In this document: piece by piece, positions 4,005-19,152 of the stretch
Layout: every line of letters starts with the position of its first letter
How positions within the stretch are numbered: the first letter of the stretch is position 1
DNA from: a candidate division WOR-3 bacterium
Lineage (GTDB): Bacteria; Hydrothermota; UBA3072; B12-G15
Reading direction: 5' to 3'
Assembly: GCA_965649055.1 (NCBI GenBank)
Contig: CBFGJG010000030.1
Coordinates: 1-25,503 of the forward strand
Length of the DNA: 25,503 nt
Notes under the pieces: model-generated
What the model saw: only the letters and a program-made list of their open reading frames with translations
Databases searched by the model: none
What the model was told of the DNA's origin: nothing
Position numbers and translations under genes: made by a program

Positions 4005-5324
4005 GTGATTGAAAGACTTAAAAAATACATAAATGAGACTGTTTTAATTGAAAAAAATAAAAAATATTTATTATCTTTTTCAGGCGGTCCTGATTCGGTT
4101 TTCCTTTCATATGTTCTTGATATTCTTGGGTTTAAATACGATTTTTTCTATATAAATCATGGGTTAAGGGATGATTCTGATAATGAAGAGGAATTCGTTA
4201 AGGAATTCTCGCGAAAAATGAAAAAGAATATTATTGTTGAAAGATTTAATGTAAAAAGATTTTGCAAAGAGAATAAATTAAGCATTGAAGAGGGTGCAAG
4301 GGTAATAAGAAGGCAGAAATTGATGGAGGCTTTTGTAAAAGGTTCATATAATGGTATTTTACTTGCCCATACACTTGATGACCTTATTGAAAACTTCTTT
4401 ATAAGGATGTTTCGTGGGAGTGGATTGGGTTTGCCAGGTATGAGTGCTAAGGACGGGATTTTTATTAGACCGATAATTATCTTCAGAAAATCAGAGATTG
4501 TCAGATTCCTTAAAGAGAATGGTATAAAATATTATGAAGACCCGTCAAATCTGGATAAGAAATTTTTAAGAAATAGGATTAGATTGGAACTTGTTCCATT
4601 GGTTGAAAAAATATCTCCAACAGGGATAAAGGGAATATTGAAAACCATTCAGAATATTGAAGATATGAAGTTAGCGTTTTCAGGTATTTTGGAAAATATC
4701 GAAGTGAGAAAGTATCTTACTCATTTAGAATTTGATAGCAGTAAAATAATAAATCTCCCTGAAACATTAAAGTTTATTTTTCTTAAAAATGCACTTTCTC
4801 TTTTCTCGGGAGAACTTGAACTGAAAAAGGAACATATTAAGAAATTAAATAAAAAATTAGAACTTAAGAATTTTATAGTTGAAATAAATGAAAATTATGG
4901 TATAATACAAAAGAAGATAAAACTTGAAGAAAGGAAATTAAAAATACCTGATAATTTTATTTTTGGCGATTTTTACTTTGAAATTGAAACAAAAGATAAA
5001 TTTGATTGTTTAAAATATAATGATAAGGATTATGAAGTAAATTGTTTTGATAGTTTATACATTAAAGAGCCGTTAATAATAAGAACGAGAAATAAAGGTG
5101 ATAAAATGATTAAATTCGGAAAGACTAAAGAAGAAAAGATAAAAGATTTCTTTATAGATAAAAAAATTCCTAAGATTTTGCGGGATTACTGGCCTTTAGT
5201 CTGCGATAAAAATGGAATAATATTAATTCCTTTTGTCGCAAGGTCGGAAATAGCGAGAATAACAGATAAAACAAGGAAAGTTTTAGTTATAAAATGCAGG
5301 AGGATTGAAAATGGATGGACCTAA
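4005..5324 (+). CDS. tilS: tRNA(Ile)-lysidine synthetase
   Basis: PP-loop SGGPDS, NHGLR, AHTLDD, EDPSN, RNRIR; C-terminal TilS_C region (IRTRNKGD...[12 protein letters not shown]...RDYWPLV); directly upstream of ftsH. Confidence 0.95.
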
Positions 5325-7104
5325 AGATGAAAGAATGAGAATACTTAGGATTATATTTATATGGATTGCATTGATAGGTGTAGTCTATTTTTTAGTAAAC
5401 TATCTTTACAAAGAAAAACCAGTTAATCTAAGTTTCACTGAATTCTTAAATTATGTAGATGATGGGAAAGTTAAAAGTGTAGTGTTTAACGATACACAGG
5501 TTTCAGGCGAATTATCAGATGGTAAAAAATTTGTCCTTCAACTCCCATTTCCTGACCCTGAACTACCAAGAAAACTTTCAGAGAAAGGTGTAGATGTTGT
5601 TGCGAAAGTAAGGTTGAATATTTTTAATTTCCTGGTTCAGGTGATACCTGCAGTTTTAATATTTATATTTTTCCTTATGATAATTAGACAATTCCAATCA
5701 GGACCAAATCAGGCATTCTCATTTGGTAAAAGCAGGGCGAAACTTGTTTCACCTTCAAAAGAGAGAATAACCTTTAAAGATGTCGCAGGTGTCGAGGAAG
5801 CAAAAGAGGAATTGAAGGAGGTTGTAGAATTCTTGAAACATCCTGACAGATATATTAAACTTGGTGCAAGGATACCTAAAGGGGTTATACTTGTTGGACC
5901 ACCGGGCTGTGGAAAGACGTTGCTTGCAAAGGCAGTTGCCGGTGAGGCAAATGTTCCTTTCTTTTCAATATCCGGTTCTGATTTTGTCGAGATGTTTGTT
6001 GGTGTTGGTGCTGCAAGGGTGAGAGACTTATTTGATACCGCAAAAAGGCATAGTCCTTGCATTATATTCATAGATGAGATAGATGCAGTCGGAAGGGTAA
6101 GGGGTGCAGGTATTGGTGGAGGACACGATGAAAGGGAGCAGACACTTAACGCATTACTTGTTGAGATGGATGGATTTGAGACAAATCAGGGAATAATAGT
6201 TCTTGCTGCAACAAACAGACCGGATATTCTTGATTATGCACTTTTAAGACCTGGAAGATTTGACAGAAGGGTGGTGATAGACCTTCCGGATGTGAAAGGA
6301 AGATACGAAATTTTGAAAGTCCATACAAGGGGAATACCTTTGTCCAAAGATGTTGACCTTGAGATTATAGCAAGGACAACACCTGGTTTTACAGGTGCTG
6401 ATATCCAGAATCTTACAAATGAAGCAGCACTGATTGCTGCAAGAAAGAAGAAAAAGAAAGTAACTATGGAAGATATAGAAGAGGCAAAGGATAAGATTTT
6501 AATGGGTGTTGAAAGAAAGAGTATGCTTTTGAGGGAAGATGAAAAAAAACTTATATCTTATCATGAAGCAGGACATACTATTGTATCATTTTTTACCCCT
6601 AATACAGACCCTATTCATAAAGTAACAATTATCCCGAGAGGATTTGCACTCGGAACAACACAGCAACTTCCACTTGATGATAGAAGAACATATTCAAAGG
6701 ATTATCTAATATCACAGCTTAGAACATTGATGGGCGGAAGGAGTGCAGAGGAGATTGTGTTTGGCTCAATATCAACCGGTGCCGGTAATGATATTGAAAG
6801 GGCAACAAGTATATCAAGAAGAATGGTATGTGAATGGGGAATGAGTGAGAAGCTTGGTCCGATATCTTTCGGTTGTGTTGACGATGATGGTTATTTCGGC
6901 AGGGATTTTTTCTCCGGCAGGGAATATTCTGAAGAGACAGCGCGTATTATAGATAGTGAGATTATGAGATTCGTTAATGAAGCATATGAGTATTCAAAGA
7001 AACTGCTTACTGAAAAAATAGATTTACTCCATAAACTTGCAGAAGAACTTTTAAAGAATGAAACATTATCAGGTGAAGAGGTCAAAAGGATTCTGACACA
7101 ATGA
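5311..7104 (+). CDS. ftsH: ATP-dependent zinc metalloprotease FtsH
   Basis: Two N-terminal TM segments, Walker A GPPGCGKT, Walker [27 protein letters not shown] zinc motif. Start placed at ATG 5311, 7 nt after AGGAGG (5298-5303), not TTG 5305. Confidence 0.97.
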
Positions 7105-7679
7105 AGAAAAAGATAGATACCAGGAAGATAGAAAAGGCAATAAAAGATATAATAATAGCGATAGAAGAAAATCCGGAAAGGGATGGTCTTAAAGATACAC
7201 CTAAAAGGGTTGCAAAACTTTATCAGGAATTATTCAAGGGTTTATATATTGACCCAAAAAAAACAATAAAAGTTTATAAGGAAAAAAAATATGATGAGAT
7301 AATAATTATTAAAGATGTTCCTTTTTACAGTATTTGTGAACATCACTTTTTGCCTTTCTTTGGTAAAGTCCATATTGCCTATATACCAAAGGATAATAAA
7401 ATAACTGGTTTTTCAAACATAATTGAATTTATAGATATTGCATCAAGAAAACCACAGATACAGGAAAGATTCACGCAGGAAATAGCAGATGTGATGATGG
7501 ACGTAATAAATCCCCTTGGAGTTCTTGTTATTGTAGAAGCAAGACAGTTATGTCTTGAAATGCAGGGCTTACAGAAATCAGGGACGATTACCACAACATC
7601 TGCAATACGCGGTGCATTTAAAAAAGAACCAACAAGACTTGAGGCACTTACCCTTATAATGGCAAATGATAAGAATTAA
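7101..7679 (+). CDS. folE: GTP cyclohydrolase I family protein (divergent active site)
   Basis: [20 protein letters not shown] and the third Zn-ligand Cys; located between ftsH and folP. Several conserved basic residues are substituted (see findings). Confidence 0.88.
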
Positions 7680-8835
7680 AGAATTTTATTCAAAAGAAGA
7701 CATAATAGAACAATTACAGAAGATAGGTGTGGACAAAGAAGTTGAAAATCTTCTATGTGATAAAATGAGGTTTTATACATTCCTTATAGAAGATATTACA
7801 CCAGCAATGGGAAATATAATAAAACAATCTGCACTTTCAAGGGGAACAGATGCAGCAATGAATAGGCTTGTTATAAAAGGAAAACCTGACTCTTCAGATA
7901 TTCTTATTGGTGGAACAAAAAGGGAATTCGAAAATATCTATAAAATTATGCAGGAACAGCCATTTAAACTTAAAAATATTTTCAAAGAAATAATAGAAAT
8001 CATAGATTTATTAGAAGGAAAGAAGAAAACAAAGATAATGGGAATATTGAATGTTACACCGGATTCTTTTTATGATGGTGGTAAATATGTTGATACAAAG
8101 AGTGCAATATTAAGAGGTATAGAGATGTTTAAAGAGGGGGCAGAAATAATTGATGTTGGAGGTGAGTCATCAAGACCGGGTTCGGAACCTGTTGATGAAG
8201 AAACTGAAAAGAAAAGGGTTATTCCCGTTGTAGATGCACTTGCAAAAGAGGGAATAACTATCTCTATCGATACATATAAATCAAATGTTGCAGAAGAATG
8301 TATTAAAAGAGGTGCAAAGATAATTAATGATATTTCTGGTATGAGATTTGATGAGAATATGGTTAAAGTTGTAAGGGATTATGATGTGAAGATTGTTATT
8401 ATGCATATGAAAGGAAAACCAAAGGATATGCAGGATAATCCATTCTATGAAGATGTGATGGAAGAAATACTTGATTTTTTTTCTGAAAGGATAGAGTTTG
8501 CAGAGAAAAATAATATTAAAGGTGAAAATATAATAGTGGACCCAGGTATTGGTTTTGGTAAGAGGGTTATAGATAACATTGAGATATTAAGAAATCTAAA
8601 AGAATTTCATTCTTTGAAAAAACCAATACTCCTTGGTGCATCAAGAAAATCTTTTATTGGTAAATTAACAGGTGCTGATAAAGAAGAGAGGCTTCCCGGT
8701 TCTTTACTCGCAGTATTTTTGGGATTAAAATCAAGTATTGATTACGTAAGGGTCCATGATGTAAAAGAGACAAAACAGGTTATTGACTTATATTATAAAA
8801 TAATGGAGAAAGATGATACAATTCACAATAATTGA
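7666..8835 (+). CDS. folP: dihydropteroate synthase with ~120-aa N-terminal extension
   Basis: MGILNVTPDSFYDGG, DVGGESSRPG, SIDT, IND, DPGIGFGK, GASRKSF and RVHDV all intact. Confidence 0.95.
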   Translation: MIRIKEFYSKEDIIEQLQKIGVDKEVENLLCDKMRFYTFLIEDITPAMGNIIKQSALSRGTDAAMNRLVIKGKPDSSDILIGGTKREFENIYKIMQEQPFKLKNIFKEIIEIIDLLEGKKKTKIMGILNVTPDSFYDGGKYVDTKSAILRGIEMFKEGAEIIDVGGESSRPGSEPVDEETEKKRVIPVVDALAKEGITISIDTYKSNVAEECIKRGAKIINDISGMRFDENMVKVVRDYDVKIVIMHMKGKPKDMQDNPFYEDVMEEILDFFSERIEFAEKNNIKGENIIVDPGIGFGKRVIDNIEILRNLKEFHSLKKPILLGASRKSFIGKLTGADKEERLPGSLLAVFLGLKSSIDYVRVHDVKETKQVIDLYYKIMEKDDTIHNN

Positions 8836-9559
8836 TTTTATTGACATATTGATTGTTGCTTCCCTTATTTATTTCTTCCTTCAATTCTTTAAAGGGACGA
8901 AGGCAATATTAACACTTACAGGTGTTTTAATATTATTTGTTTTATGGATGATAGGTAGTATATTTGACCTTAAAACACTAAAATTTGTATCAGGTGGACT
9001 CGGTAATATATGGATAATAGTTTTTGTTATTCTTTTCCAGAATGAGATAAGAAAGGCATTGCTTTCCCTTGGTTCTAAAGGTTTTTCAAGATTTATATTT
9101 ATTGAAGAGAGGGAGAAACTTGCAAAGGAAATCTCAGATGCAGCAAAAATCCTTTCTGATAAAAGGATCGGTGCTCTTATGGCCATAGAAAGGAACAACA
9201 CACTTGACCAGTATATCGAAAGGGGAATAAAGATGGAGGCTTCGGTTGACGCAAACCTTCTTGTTTCAATCTTTTCTCCTTATTCACCACTTCATGATGG
9301 TGGAGTTATAATAAGAGGGACTTCAATAGTTGGAGCAAAATCAATATTTCCGTTATCTAAAAATCCTAATCTGAGTCCATCCTTCGGAACAAGACACCTT
9401 GCAGCGATAGGTATCACTGAAGAAACAGATTGTATATGTGTTGTTGTATCAGAGGAAACGGGTTTCATTTCATTATGTTCAGGTGGTAATGTGGAAAGAA
9501 ATATTGAACCTGAAAAACTGAAGACAAAAATAATAAACGCAATACATAAAGGAGGATAA
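8813..9559 (+). CDS. cdaA: membrane-bound diadenylate cyclase CdaA/DacA (c-di-AMP synthase)
   Basis: Three N-terminal TM helices, VILFQNEIR, GALMAIER, SPLHDGGVII, GTRHLAAIGITE, VVSEETG. Confidence 0.9.
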   Translation: MIQFTIIDFIDILIVASLIYFFLQFFKGTKAILTLTGVLILFVLWMIGSIFDLKTLKFVSGGLGNIWIIVFVILFQNEIRKALLSLGSKGFSRFIFIEEREKLAKEISDAAKILSDKRIGALMAIERNNTLDQYIERGIKMEASVDANLLVSIFSPYSPLHDGGVIIRGTSIVGAKSIFPLSKNPNLSPSFGTRHLAAIGITEETDCICVVVSEETGFISLCSGGNVERNIEPEKLKTKIINAIHKGG

Positions 9560-15219: not shown

Positions 15220-16280
15220 ATTAAAAAGTAAGGTTGAAGAAATCGGGAGGTTTCTTTGATATAGGAAATAAAAAGAAAAGGAAGGAAGAGATTGAAAAGA
15301 TAATGCAAAACGAGGATTTCTGGAAGGATTTGGAAAAGGCAAAGGAAATTAACAGGGAGTTAAAAGAGATAAATTTAAAAATAGATGAATATCAAAGTAT
15401 ATTAAATGAAGTGAATATTTTGGAGGAATTTATTGAGATAGGCGAATCTGAAGAAGAGATAAACAAAGAAATTACAAGGATAAAGAGGAAATTAAATGAA
15501 CTTGAAGAAAGAATATTACTTTCAGACAAAGATGATATAAGGGGTGCAATATTAACAATCCATCCGGGTGCAGGTGGAACTGAATCCTGTGATTGGGCAC
15601 AGATGCTTTTGAGGATGTATACGAGATTCATAGAAAGGAAAGGATTTAAATATGAAATTATAGATTATCAGGCAGGCGAAGAGGCTGGGATAAAAGATGC
15701 ATCAATAGAGATAAGGGCAGAATACGCCTATGGACTTTTAAAATCAGAAACAGGTGTTCACAGGCTTGTCAGGATTTCACCTTTTGATGCAAACAAGAGA
15801 AGGCATACATCATTTGTATCAGTATTTGTATATCCATTGATAGAAGATGATGTTCAGATTGATATAAAGGAAGATGAGATTCAGATGGAAACTTTCAGGG
15901 CGTCAGGACCTGGTGGTCAGAATGTTAATAAAGTTAATACAGCAGTAAGACTTATACATATACCCACTGGAATAACAGTTACAGCAAGGAGTGAAAGGTC
16001 GCAATTCCAAAATAGAAAAATTGCTATGCTGTTGCTCAAAGCAAAACTTTATGCACTTGAAAAAGAAAAACAGGAAGAAGAAAAAAGGAAACTTGAGGAT
16101 AAAAAAACAGATATATCATGGGGGAATCAGATAAGGTCCTATGTTTTACATCCATATAAGCTTGTAAAAGACCATAGAACTGAATTTGAGACATCAAATG
16201 CAGAGGCAGTCCTTGATGGTGATATTGACGATTTTATAAGTGAATATCTAAAATGGCTCAAATTGACAGAGAAGAATTAA
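15206..16280 (+). CDS. prfB: peptide chain release factor 2, translated through a programmed +1 frameshift (join 15206-15256 and 15258-16280; 357 aa)
   Basis: ATG 15206 after GGGAGG gives [17 protein letters not shown] then in-frame TGA; the +1 frame continues DIGNKK... with RF2 motifs SPF (RISPFDAN) and GGQ. Confidence 0.95.
15245..15260 (+). other. RF2 autoregulatory +1 frameshift site
   Basis: GGGAGG-TTT-CTT-TGA-T: internal SD-like sequence, 3-nt spacer and shifty CTT TGA, matching the canonical prfB layout. Confidence 0.93.
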
Positions 16281-17322: not shown

Positions 17323-19152
17323 ATGGAAAAAAGGAAACTAAATCTAATAGACATATTCTCAATCGCAACAGGTGCTATGATAAGTTCAGGGATATTCATA
17401 CTCCCTGGTATTGCATATGCTAAAACAGGTCCTTCTGTTGTTCTGTCTTACATTATCGCTTCTCTTTTTGCATTACCGGGTATGTTAAGTATGGCAGAAC
17501 TTATAACAGCTATGCCAAGAACAGGTTCGGAAACTTACATACTTCTAAAAGGTCTTGGGCCTGATGTTGGTTTTGTTGCAGGCCTTATTGCGTGTTTTTC
17601 TTTAATTACAAAAGCTGCTTTTTCACTGATAGGTCTTTCAATATTAATTCAAAATATATTAAGATTGCCAATATGGTTTATTGCATCAGTCCTTTGCGTT
17701 ATTCTGTTTTATTTCAACCTTTTAGGTTTAAAAAAGGCTACACTTCTACAAAATATTCTTGTTATTTTCCTTATATTGATAATGTTTTGCTATCCTGCTC
17801 TGTCATTCAAAGAAATAAATCTTTCACATTTCAGACCATTTTTTAAAAAAGATATAATATCTGTTTTTTCAACAGCTGGTTTTGTTTTTATATCCTATGC
17901 AGGACTTTTAAAGATTTCTACTGTTGCAGGTGAGACAAAAAGACCCGGGAAATACCTTCCAATAGGTATGTTCAGTTCTTATTTTGTTATTCTTATACTT
18001 TATACAATATCAGTTTTTACTACCATAGGAATCCTTGGTGAAGAAAAACTATCTTCAAGCCTTACACCACTTGCAGATGGAGCTTATAAGATTATTGGAA
18101 TTTGGGGAAGAATTATTATGAATATTGGAGCGATTTTTGCTTTCGTCTCAACTGCAAATGCAGGTATGATGAGTGCTGCAAGGACATTGATTCCATTGAG
18201 TGAATTCAGGCTTCTTCCACCATTTATATCAAGAATAAATAAAAGATTTATGACACCACATTTTTCATTGATTGTTGTTTCTCTTATTATGATTGCTTTT
18301 TTATTTTTAAAGATAGAAATCCTTGTAGAAGTAGCATCAATTTTTCTTGTGATTCAACATATTTTTGTTAACCTTGCAGTTATTGTTTTCAGGGAATCAA
18401 AGATTCAGAGTTACAAACCCACATTTAATTCTCCATTATATCCTTATATTCAGATTATTGGTGTGATATTCCTGATATTTATTCTAATTGAGATGGAGCC
18501 TCTTCCTATTGCTCTTGCATCAGTTATTCTTATTCTTTTCTTCCTTCTTGCATTGCTTATTAAGAGTGAGAAAAAAAATGTTGAATATGCATTATTAAAA
18601 ATAGTTGAGAATATTACAAAAAAAGATTCGATGTGTGATGTTATTGAGAAGGAATTAAGTGAGATTGTCTTTGAAAGAGATGAGATTGTAAAGGACAGAT
18701 TTGATGAAATGATAGAAAATTGCAAGATTCTGGATATAGATGAAAAGATAGATTTAAATAGGATAATGGAAATAATATCAGAGGAGTTTGCAAACGAACT
18801 TGGTATGAAAAAAGAAAAGATATTGGAGGAATTTTTGAATAGAGAGAAGGAAGGTAGCACAGTTATAAACGATTATCTTGCTATTCCACATATAATAATT
18901 GAAGGTAGGAAAGTTTTAAAGATTTTAATAATCAGGGCTAAGAAAGGGGTTCAATTTTCTGATGAATACAAAGATATAAATATAATATTTGCAATTGTTG
19001 CAAGCCCTGATGAAAGGAATTTCTATCTTAAAACACTTGCTGCAATTGCGCAGGTTTGTCATTCATACAATTTTGACAAAAAATGGCTCTGTGCAAGGAA
19101 TACAGAATCATTGAGGCATTTGATACTTCATAGTTCAAGAAGAAGATTTTAG
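17323..19152 (+). CDS. APC-family amino acid permease fused to a C-terminal PTS EIIA (fructose/mannitol/Ntr-type) domain
   Basis: GAMISSGIFILPG (APC TM1), GFVFISYAG...AGE (TM6), multiple TMs; C-terminal REKEGST...LAIPH containing the phospho-acceptor His. Confidence 0.88.
   Translation: MEKRKLNLIDIFSIATGAMISSGIFILPGIAYAKTGPSVVLSYIIASLFALPGMLSMAELITAMPRTGSETYILLKGLGPDVGFVAGLIACFSLITKAAFSLIGLSILIQNILRLPIWFIASVLCVILFYFNLLGLKKATLLQNILVIFLILIMFCYPALSFKEINLSHFRPFFKKDIISVFSTAGFVFISYAGLLKISTVAGETKRPGKYLPIGMFSSYFVILILYTISVFTTIGILGEEKLSSSLTPLADGAYKIIGIWGRIIMNIGAIFAFVSTANAGMMSAARTLIPLSEFRLLPPFISRINKRFMTPHFSLIVVSLIMIAFLFLKIEILVEVASIFLVIQHIFVNLAVIVFRESKIQSYKPTFNSPLYPYIQIIGVIFLIFILIEMEPLPIALASVILILFFLLALLIKSEKKNVEYALLKIVENITKKDSMCDVIEKELSEIVFERDEIVKDRFDEMIENCKILDIDEKIDLNRIMEIISEEFANELGMKKEKILEEFLNREKEGSTVINDYLAIPHIIIEGRKVLKILIIRAKKGVQFSDEYKDINIIFAIVASPDERNFYLKTLAAIAQVCHSYNFDKKWLCARNTESLRHLILHSSRRRF

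Follow-up and report, generated by a model that had tools for sequence, protein, structure and literature searches.

A variant FolE subfamily encoded next to ftsH in WOR-3 and Zixibacteria and its possible place in folate synthesis

GTP cyclohydrolase I (GCH I) is among the most conserved of cofactor enzymes, and its phosphate-binding residues and His179 (E. coli numbering) are treated as fixed. Mutants of its zinc ligands fail on the formamide intermediate. The active site sits between three subunits, and in the T. thermophilus enzyme the zinc is held by C108, H111 and C179, ribose opening is assigned to H110 and ring binding to E150, K134, R137, R183 and R64 bind the phosphates, and H177 protonates N7, replacement of the equivalent H179 abolishing activity (PMC4005822). 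In the human enzyme GCH1, R216 contacts the beta and gamma phosphates and a lid residue stacks on His143, closing the active site, and GCH I turnover requires long substrate residence (PMC7750480). The known role of the zinc lies in the hydrolytic first half of the reaction (PMC6718149).

Several systems depart from this scheme. PtnA (PMC7109123) and AzaE (PMC13749301) are FolE homologues that stop or branch half-way, which shows that the two halves of the reaction are separable; the triphosphate residues are present in both proteins, their substrate is, or is proposed to be, GTP, the first half is the one they favour, and their genes belong to antibiotic clusters. In Chlamydia, folE is absent, and FolE and FolQ are bypassed by RibA and TrpF(CtL2), a recruited TIM-barrel isomerase that turns the RibA product into H2NMP and complements the loss of folE in E. 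coli (PMC4161248). Finally, FolE2/MptA (GCH IB, PF02649), which is a separate family, fills the same pathway slot in some WOR-3 bacteria, although no match was found in the genome studied here.

The window analysed is a stretch of 25,503 nucleotides from a candidate division WOR-3 bacterium. On its plus strand it carries the gene string tilS-ftsH-folE-folP-cdaA, in which a complete ORF of 192 aa (7101..7679) is overlapped at its start by ftsH (5305..7104) and at its end by folP (dihydropteroate synthase, 7666..8835, with a 120-aa N-terminal extension), with tilS (4005..5324) upstream and the diadenylate cyclase gene cdaA (8813..9559) downstream as operon context. This ORF, here called folE*, codes for a variant GTP cyclohydrolase IA homologue, and is the sole FolE-family gene that profile searches found in the genome. 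By sequence and fold FolE* belongs to the FolE family: it scores 217.5 bits against PF01227 (cut-off 27), 209.7 against TIGR00063 (cut-off 181.6) and 242.4 against NF006826 (cut-off 162), and shares the fold and 44-47% identity with characterised GCH IA (Listeria 4uqf, M. tuberculosis 9p8z, T. thermophilus 1wm9, human GCH1). The location of its gene next to folP is a further feature in common with known FolE. Its predicted model (pLDDT 93) is an ordinary single-domain FolE T-fold with N-terminal helices, and superposes on M. tuberculosis FolE (9p8z) with a TM of 0.93; structural comparison with FolE gave a Z of 25.7 and an rmsd of 1.3 over 187 residues. The closest named homologues are from WOR-3 bacteria.

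The extension of FolP (7666-8040) has no Pfam match, and the genome is without a detectable DHFR; the extension possibly represents a dihydropteroate reductase domain of the H. pylori type. Elsewhere in the window, a peptide release factor ORF (15234-16280) with a TTG start seems to miss the usual N-terminus and would fit a prfB with programmed frameshift, and an amino-acid permease is fused to a PTS EIIA-type domain (17323-19152).

Residues of FolE* were mapped by alignment to Listeria, M. tuberculosis and human GCH I, in which GFSNIIE falls on the canonical GLSKxxR and QLCLEMQG on HxCxxxRG (all positions that follow are on the plus strand). As in canonical FolE, the predicted zinc and ring sites are intact, as the preliminary description had stated of this full-length ORF: C79-E80-H81-H82 (7335..7346) would provide zinc ligands as well as the His that opens the ribose (E. 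coli C110, H112 and H113), C151 the last zinc ligand, and Q121-E122 (7461..7466) the ring-recognition residues (E. coli Q151 and E152), E122 standing for the guanine-recognition Glu152. Unlike in canonical FolE, N106 (codon 7416 AAC) replaces Lys136 and E109 (7425 GAA) replaces Arg139 in the stretch 7413..7427, where S105 (E. coli Ser135) is kept, and Q149 (7545 CAG) replaces His179 and Q155 (7563 CAG) replaces Arg185 on either side of the retained C151 (7545..7565). These four substitutions, which had been read from the DNA alone, are borne out by the codons and by the alignment to solved GCH I. Only one of the four triphosphate residues Arg65, Lys136, Arg139 and Arg185 is therefore kept, namely Arg36 (E. 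coli R65; 7206..7208). A further difference concerns the lid, where canonical enzymes have a Phe six residues before the Glu66 equivalent (human F122), whereas FolE* has a subfamily-specific aromatic residue, Tyr59 (7275..7277), one residue further out, with a putative lid role. Because two defining features, the triphosphate residues and His179, are lacking, FolE* should not be filed as a canonical GCH IA without an assay.

An alignment was made of one FolE from each of 137 genomes of WOR-3, leaving out two fragments and a partial second copy. In it, 104 proteins are without Lys136 and the other 33 are canonical; 25 have the N..Q..Q of the window protein, and 16 the exact N/E/Q/Q set. Among the 80 FolE listed from other GTDB phyla, R65, K136, R139, H179 and R185 are retained in 78 and His179 in 80/80, and the two exceptions, from Zixibacteria and Latescibacterota, group with the window protein. 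The four basic residues and His179 are all present in 78/78 of the listed GTDB FolE outside the clade and in 33/33 canonical WOR-3 FolE, and the N/E/Q/Q pattern is far from chance. Of the 78 FolE matches in Zixibacteria, 71 were examined, giving 31 FolE* and 40 canonical proteins; 30/31 of the former were seen directly after ftsH, and the 40 canonical genes mostly adjoin PTPS genes. Within WOR-3, FtsH neighbour ORFs come from FolE* families in 101/101 cases and from canonical ones in none. The N/E/Q/Q changes are thus the hallmark of a conserved FolE subfamily whose genes lie next to ftsH in WOR-3 and Zixibacteria, the ftsH-folE* order being its ancestral locus. Both types are present in 11 Zixibacteria genomes (L280-L296, L268-L279), where the ftsH-locus FolE* is accompanied by a canonical FolE that usually lies by PTPS and short-chain dehydrogenase genes, a group that represents a putative biopterin-like operon.

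We then compared 136 FolE* with 151 canonical sequences. All 136 FolE* retain C110, H112, H113, Q151, E152 and C181, while Lys136 is lost in nearly all of them, and R65 is kept in 122, R139 in 73, R185 in 64 and H179 in 87, position 179 being Gln in every one of the remaining 49. Of the four basic residues of the phosphate site, 1, 28, 74, 29 and 4 proteins have none, one, two, three and four, respectively, i.e. at most two in 103/136 and three or four in 33/136. Lys136 itself had served in part to define the two groups, and the full pattern to define the 40 canonical rows from Zixibacteria; an independent control is therefore available only in the remaining 111 canonical rows and at the sites other than Lys136, which are fully conserved there. 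The lid Tyr seven residues before Glu66 is present in 126/136 FolE* against 1/151 canonical sequences, of which 132 have a Phe six residues before. Which basic residues are retained differs between FolE* lineages, and His179 to Gln requires at least 7 changes on the tree. The expectation that N/E/Q/Q would define a conserved clade is therefore upheld for a subfamily under purifying selection, but the losses are mosaic and the exact set occurs in only those 16 WOR-3 FolE. The most diverged FolE* (G137, L143) carries E111K and R65F.

Concerning a single origin of FolE*, a quick tree gave an SH-aLRT of 100, and a careful tree of 101 rows a support of only 56/77; when 36 long or near-duplicate rows were removed and 65 left, 39 of the 40 FolE* rows formed a clade supported at 99/96, the outlier (P0086) being a protein that retains Lys136. 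Many long FolE homologues (P0272-P0361) contain inteins carrying LAGLIDADG endonuclease domains, and one of these (P0272) is of the FolE* type.

The median dN/dS of the N/Q/Q group is 0.052, based on the 48/300 pairs that were usable (dS 0.1-1.5), which are non-independent, those with the window sequence itself being saturated; canonical WOR-3 families range from 0.046 to 0.116. The pattern moreover recurs in homologues at 60-96% identity with synonymous codon variation. The residue change is thus concerted, clade-wide and under purifying selection (dN/dS ~0.05), which argues against decay, as the preliminary description had surmised.

The genome of the window (93.8% complete) contains folB, folK, folP, folC and ribBA/E/H. 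The absence of folB and folK from the window, to which some weight had been given earlier, is real but carries no meaning, because the two genes are present on another contig of the genome, C23 (L003 402-3238, G000), as a folB-folK-deoxynucleoside kinase group directly downstream of a roadblock/small GTPase (MglB/MglA-like) pair; the FolB encoded there is divergent. Of the genes that the preliminary description had proposed to look for genome-wide, folB and folK were hence found, but a second folE, folE2 or queD was not. In the same 93.8% complete genome we found no FolE2 (PF02649), GCH III, PTPS/QueD, QueC or DHFR, and a profile built on the 137 WOR-3 FolE detected no second FolE member among 7231 ORFs (next best E 0.028). 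RibBA lies on contig C53 (E 5.8e-73) with an intact RibA, which is uninformative because ribA is near-universal in the phylum; ribD was not found in the genome, probably owing to an assembly break, since contig C53 starts at ribE.

Across the phylum, FolE2 scores over the cut-off in 95/242 WOR-3 genomes, and occurs together with FolE* in only 2 of 102 FolE* genomes, where it lies inside a que operon. In a sample of 80 genomes, in which related genomes are non-independent and drafts miss genes, the 61 with FolE* have folP in 56, ribA in 60, folB in 33 and queC in 26 cases, against folB in 0 of the 19 non-FolE* genomes; queC is present in 24/59 FolE* genomes without FolE2, and folK in 29/30 genomes tested. 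In most genomes that retain the downstream genes, no GCH I candidate other than FolE* was found, as in the window's own genome, where folBKP are present. FolE*, canonical FolE and FolE2 thus substitute for each other with the downstream genes retained, which usually indicates that enzymes occupy the same step of a pathway.

Two further observations concern the pterin enzymes downstream. In four families (f15, f38, f37 and f13, i.e. G176, G147, G143, G035 and kin; L163, L359, L167, L356, L327-L349), folK and in most cases folP are present, but FolB gave no match and the only PTPS is of the CxxxHGH (QueD) type, so that the aldolase step looks like another pathway hole there. In families f31, f32 and f34 (L321, L322, L323), whose genomes are without queC and folB, PTPS-like proteins have HEH replacing HGH and possibly form a new folate-type PTPS subfamily.

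We tentatively propose, at somewhat less than an even chance, that FolE* performs only the Amadori and ring-closure half of the GCH I reaction, on the monophosphate product of RibA, to yield dihydroneopterin monophosphate; a substrate with fewer phosphates is the most economical reading. RibA would turn GTP into 2,5-diamino-6-ribosylamino-4(3H)-pyrimidinone 5'-phosphate, whose ring would be gripped by Glu122 and whose single phosphate by the one or two remaining basic residues; His81 would open the ribose, and FolE* would then form 7,8-dihydroneopterin monophosphate by an Amadori rearrangement followed by ring closure. Such a product would bypass the FolQ pyrophosphatase step and, after a phosphatase, would pass to FolB, FolK and FolP, or in relatives to PTPS/QueD. 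The zinc would be retained as a Lewis acid or structural ion, the weakest step of the scheme.

Ring closure on the RibA product is favoured because the residues that have relaxed are the phosphate binders and the His that protonates N7 in the first half, because the ring Glu, the ribose-opening His and one or two basic residues are kept, and because different lineages retain different basic residues, which is what the need to bind about one phosphate would lead to. It is also favoured by the selection on folE* and the pathway slot it fills, and by the precedent of Chlamydia TrpF, which converts the same RibA product. The comparison has its limits: the chemistry is shown in Chlamydia (PMC4161248) and would apply to FolE* by proposal only, folBKP being kept downstream, and the enzyme here is FolE itself with its zinc site kept. 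FolE* could work like TrpF but would not be a member of that family, because it has a FolE fold and no (beta/alpha)8 barrel. Compared with PtnA and AzaE, FolE* is the product of a housekeeping-locus gene and would keep the second half.

Some support may come from QueD. The basic residue (Lys/Arg) before the catalytic Cys of QueD/PTPS is absent in 28/30 FolE*-only genomes against 4/25 FolE2-only genomes, with 6 more lacking the Cys, and Lys is kept in 2/2 genomes with both FolE* and FolE2; however, this co-variation comprises few independent events and is not significant (only 1 independent pair, p = 1). Archaeal PTPS-III may use the monophosphate (PMC5041015). Together with the second cyclohydrolase found in PTPS or que operons of the 11 Zixibacteria and 2 WOR-3 genomes that retain FolE*, the QueD trend is no more than suggestive of ring closure downstream of RibA, which would in turn have to count on a QueD that accepts a monophosphate, a point against it.

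More serious is that the zinc ligands are invariant (136/136), the known job of zinc being in the hydrolytic first half and TrpF not being known to need a zinc site, and that His179 persists in many lineages together with two or three basic residues, so that use of GTP is easy to imagine for them. A link to RibA is also weakened by its surroundings: no rib gene was seen among the common FolE* neighbours. Of 7995 candidates scored, the 120 best long homologues included no fusion to RibA; most of these 120 contain inteins or are fused to FolC. Co-occurrence cannot support the link either, because ribA and ribH are near-universal (79/80; 233/242). The only FolE* genome tested without ribA and ribH is that of G137, a single 92%-complete draft in which this may be an assembly gap.

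The invariant zinc site favours hydrolysis of GTP or, with lesser probability, of GMP or GDP. In the first case, unlikely but well worth keeping in mind, FolE* would be a complete GTP cyclohydrolase I producing dihydroneopterin triphosphate in a remodelled pocket, where millimolar GTP, possibly a metal-bridged triphosphate on Glu/Asp109, and the new Tyr lid would offset the lost contacts and His179. This agrees with the invariance of His112 and the zinc site, the gain of the lid Tyr, a score over the FolE equivalog cut-off, the position of FolE* as sole candidate supplier in genomes with queDEC, and the 33/136 proteins that keep three or four basic residues. Yet the four basic residues and His179 are universal in the 78 listed GTDB FolE outside the clade and the 33 canonical WOR-3 FolE, the window protein retains one basic residue and gains an acid, replacement of H179 abolishes activity in E. 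coli (PMC4005822), and turnover needs long substrate residence (PMC7750480).

Somewhat less likely, FolE* would run the whole zinc-dependent reaction on GMP or GDP (or guanosine) to give dihydroneopterin mono- or diphosphate, with the lid Tyr replacing His179. Both the invariant zinc site and the mosaic losses at the phosphate site would be accounted for, an acid at 109 would help to exclude GTP, and the QueD trend would fit. However, ring opening and formate release would have to proceed without His179 in 7 or more independent cases, the putative reach of the Tyr to the zinc must be assumed, and the papers searched gave no precedent for a FolE acting on GMP or GDP.

It is quite improbable that FolE* is a pseudo-enzyme with a binding, scaffold or regulatory role, pterin coming from an unrecognised enzyme or from salvage. 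This option, raised in the preliminary description, could draw on the four changed residues that are held important and on the 11 Zixibacteria and 2 WOR-3 genomes that hold FolE* beside another cyclohydrolase, but it loses ground because the catalytic core is invariant, because in WOR-3 FolE* nearly excludes, and replaces across genomes, FolE2 and canonical FolE, and because its own genome (93.8% complete) has no detectable FolE2, GCH III or second FolE. The interchange of the three enzymes with retention of folK, folP and often folB or queDEC makes both a pseudo-enzyme and decay unlikely.

Even more improbable is that another FolE-like subunit or domain provides in trans the residues that FolE* has lost. 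The active site between three subunits would allow it (PMC4005822). There are also long two-domain FolE matches, which we take to be plant-type GCH I, with complementary losses: K136 and R139 are lost in one domain and the zinc ligands in the other, so that the zinc-bearing domain lacks Lys136 and Arg139, as does FolE*. In these proteins the partner domain supplies the residues and His179 and Arg185 stay in the zinc-bearing second domain, whereas both are lost in the window protein, for which no partner was found among the 7231 ORFs of the genome. Private decay, an incipient pseudogene, or an assembly or sequencing error, for which no supporting point was found, has a negligible probability and is ruled out by the homologues at 60-96% identity that share the pattern with synonymous codon variation and a dN/dS of ~0.05; the notion of substitutions private to this genome under relaxed selection falls with it.

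We found no description of the FolE* subfamily or of a WOR-3 folate route in the papers searched, which were mostly outside subscription journals and supplements, and as far as these papers go FolE* appears to be a previously undescribed variant of a known enzyme. Because FolE* genes score over the FolE equivalog cut-off, they may be misannotated. Whichever explanation is correct, a multi-phylum subfamily that drops phosphate residues and His179 under strong selection breaks the rule that these are fixed. If GTP is still used, the FolE* family would offer a set of naturally occurring mutants with which to study what His179, the zinc and the lid contribute to the slow second half, where their roles are unsettled. 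If FolE* instead acts on the RibA product, it would represent a second, independent RibA-fed entry into folate beside that of Chlamydia, and the often unidentified FolQ step would be unneeded in FolE* genomes. With a shade more reserve than for the reaction itself, we suggest that in WOR-3, many Zixibacteria and neighbouring phyla RibA may open GTP for both flavin and pterin, FolE* may close the ring, FolQ would be unnecessary and QueD would be monophosphate-adapted, so that folate and queuosine synthesis would start in this way.
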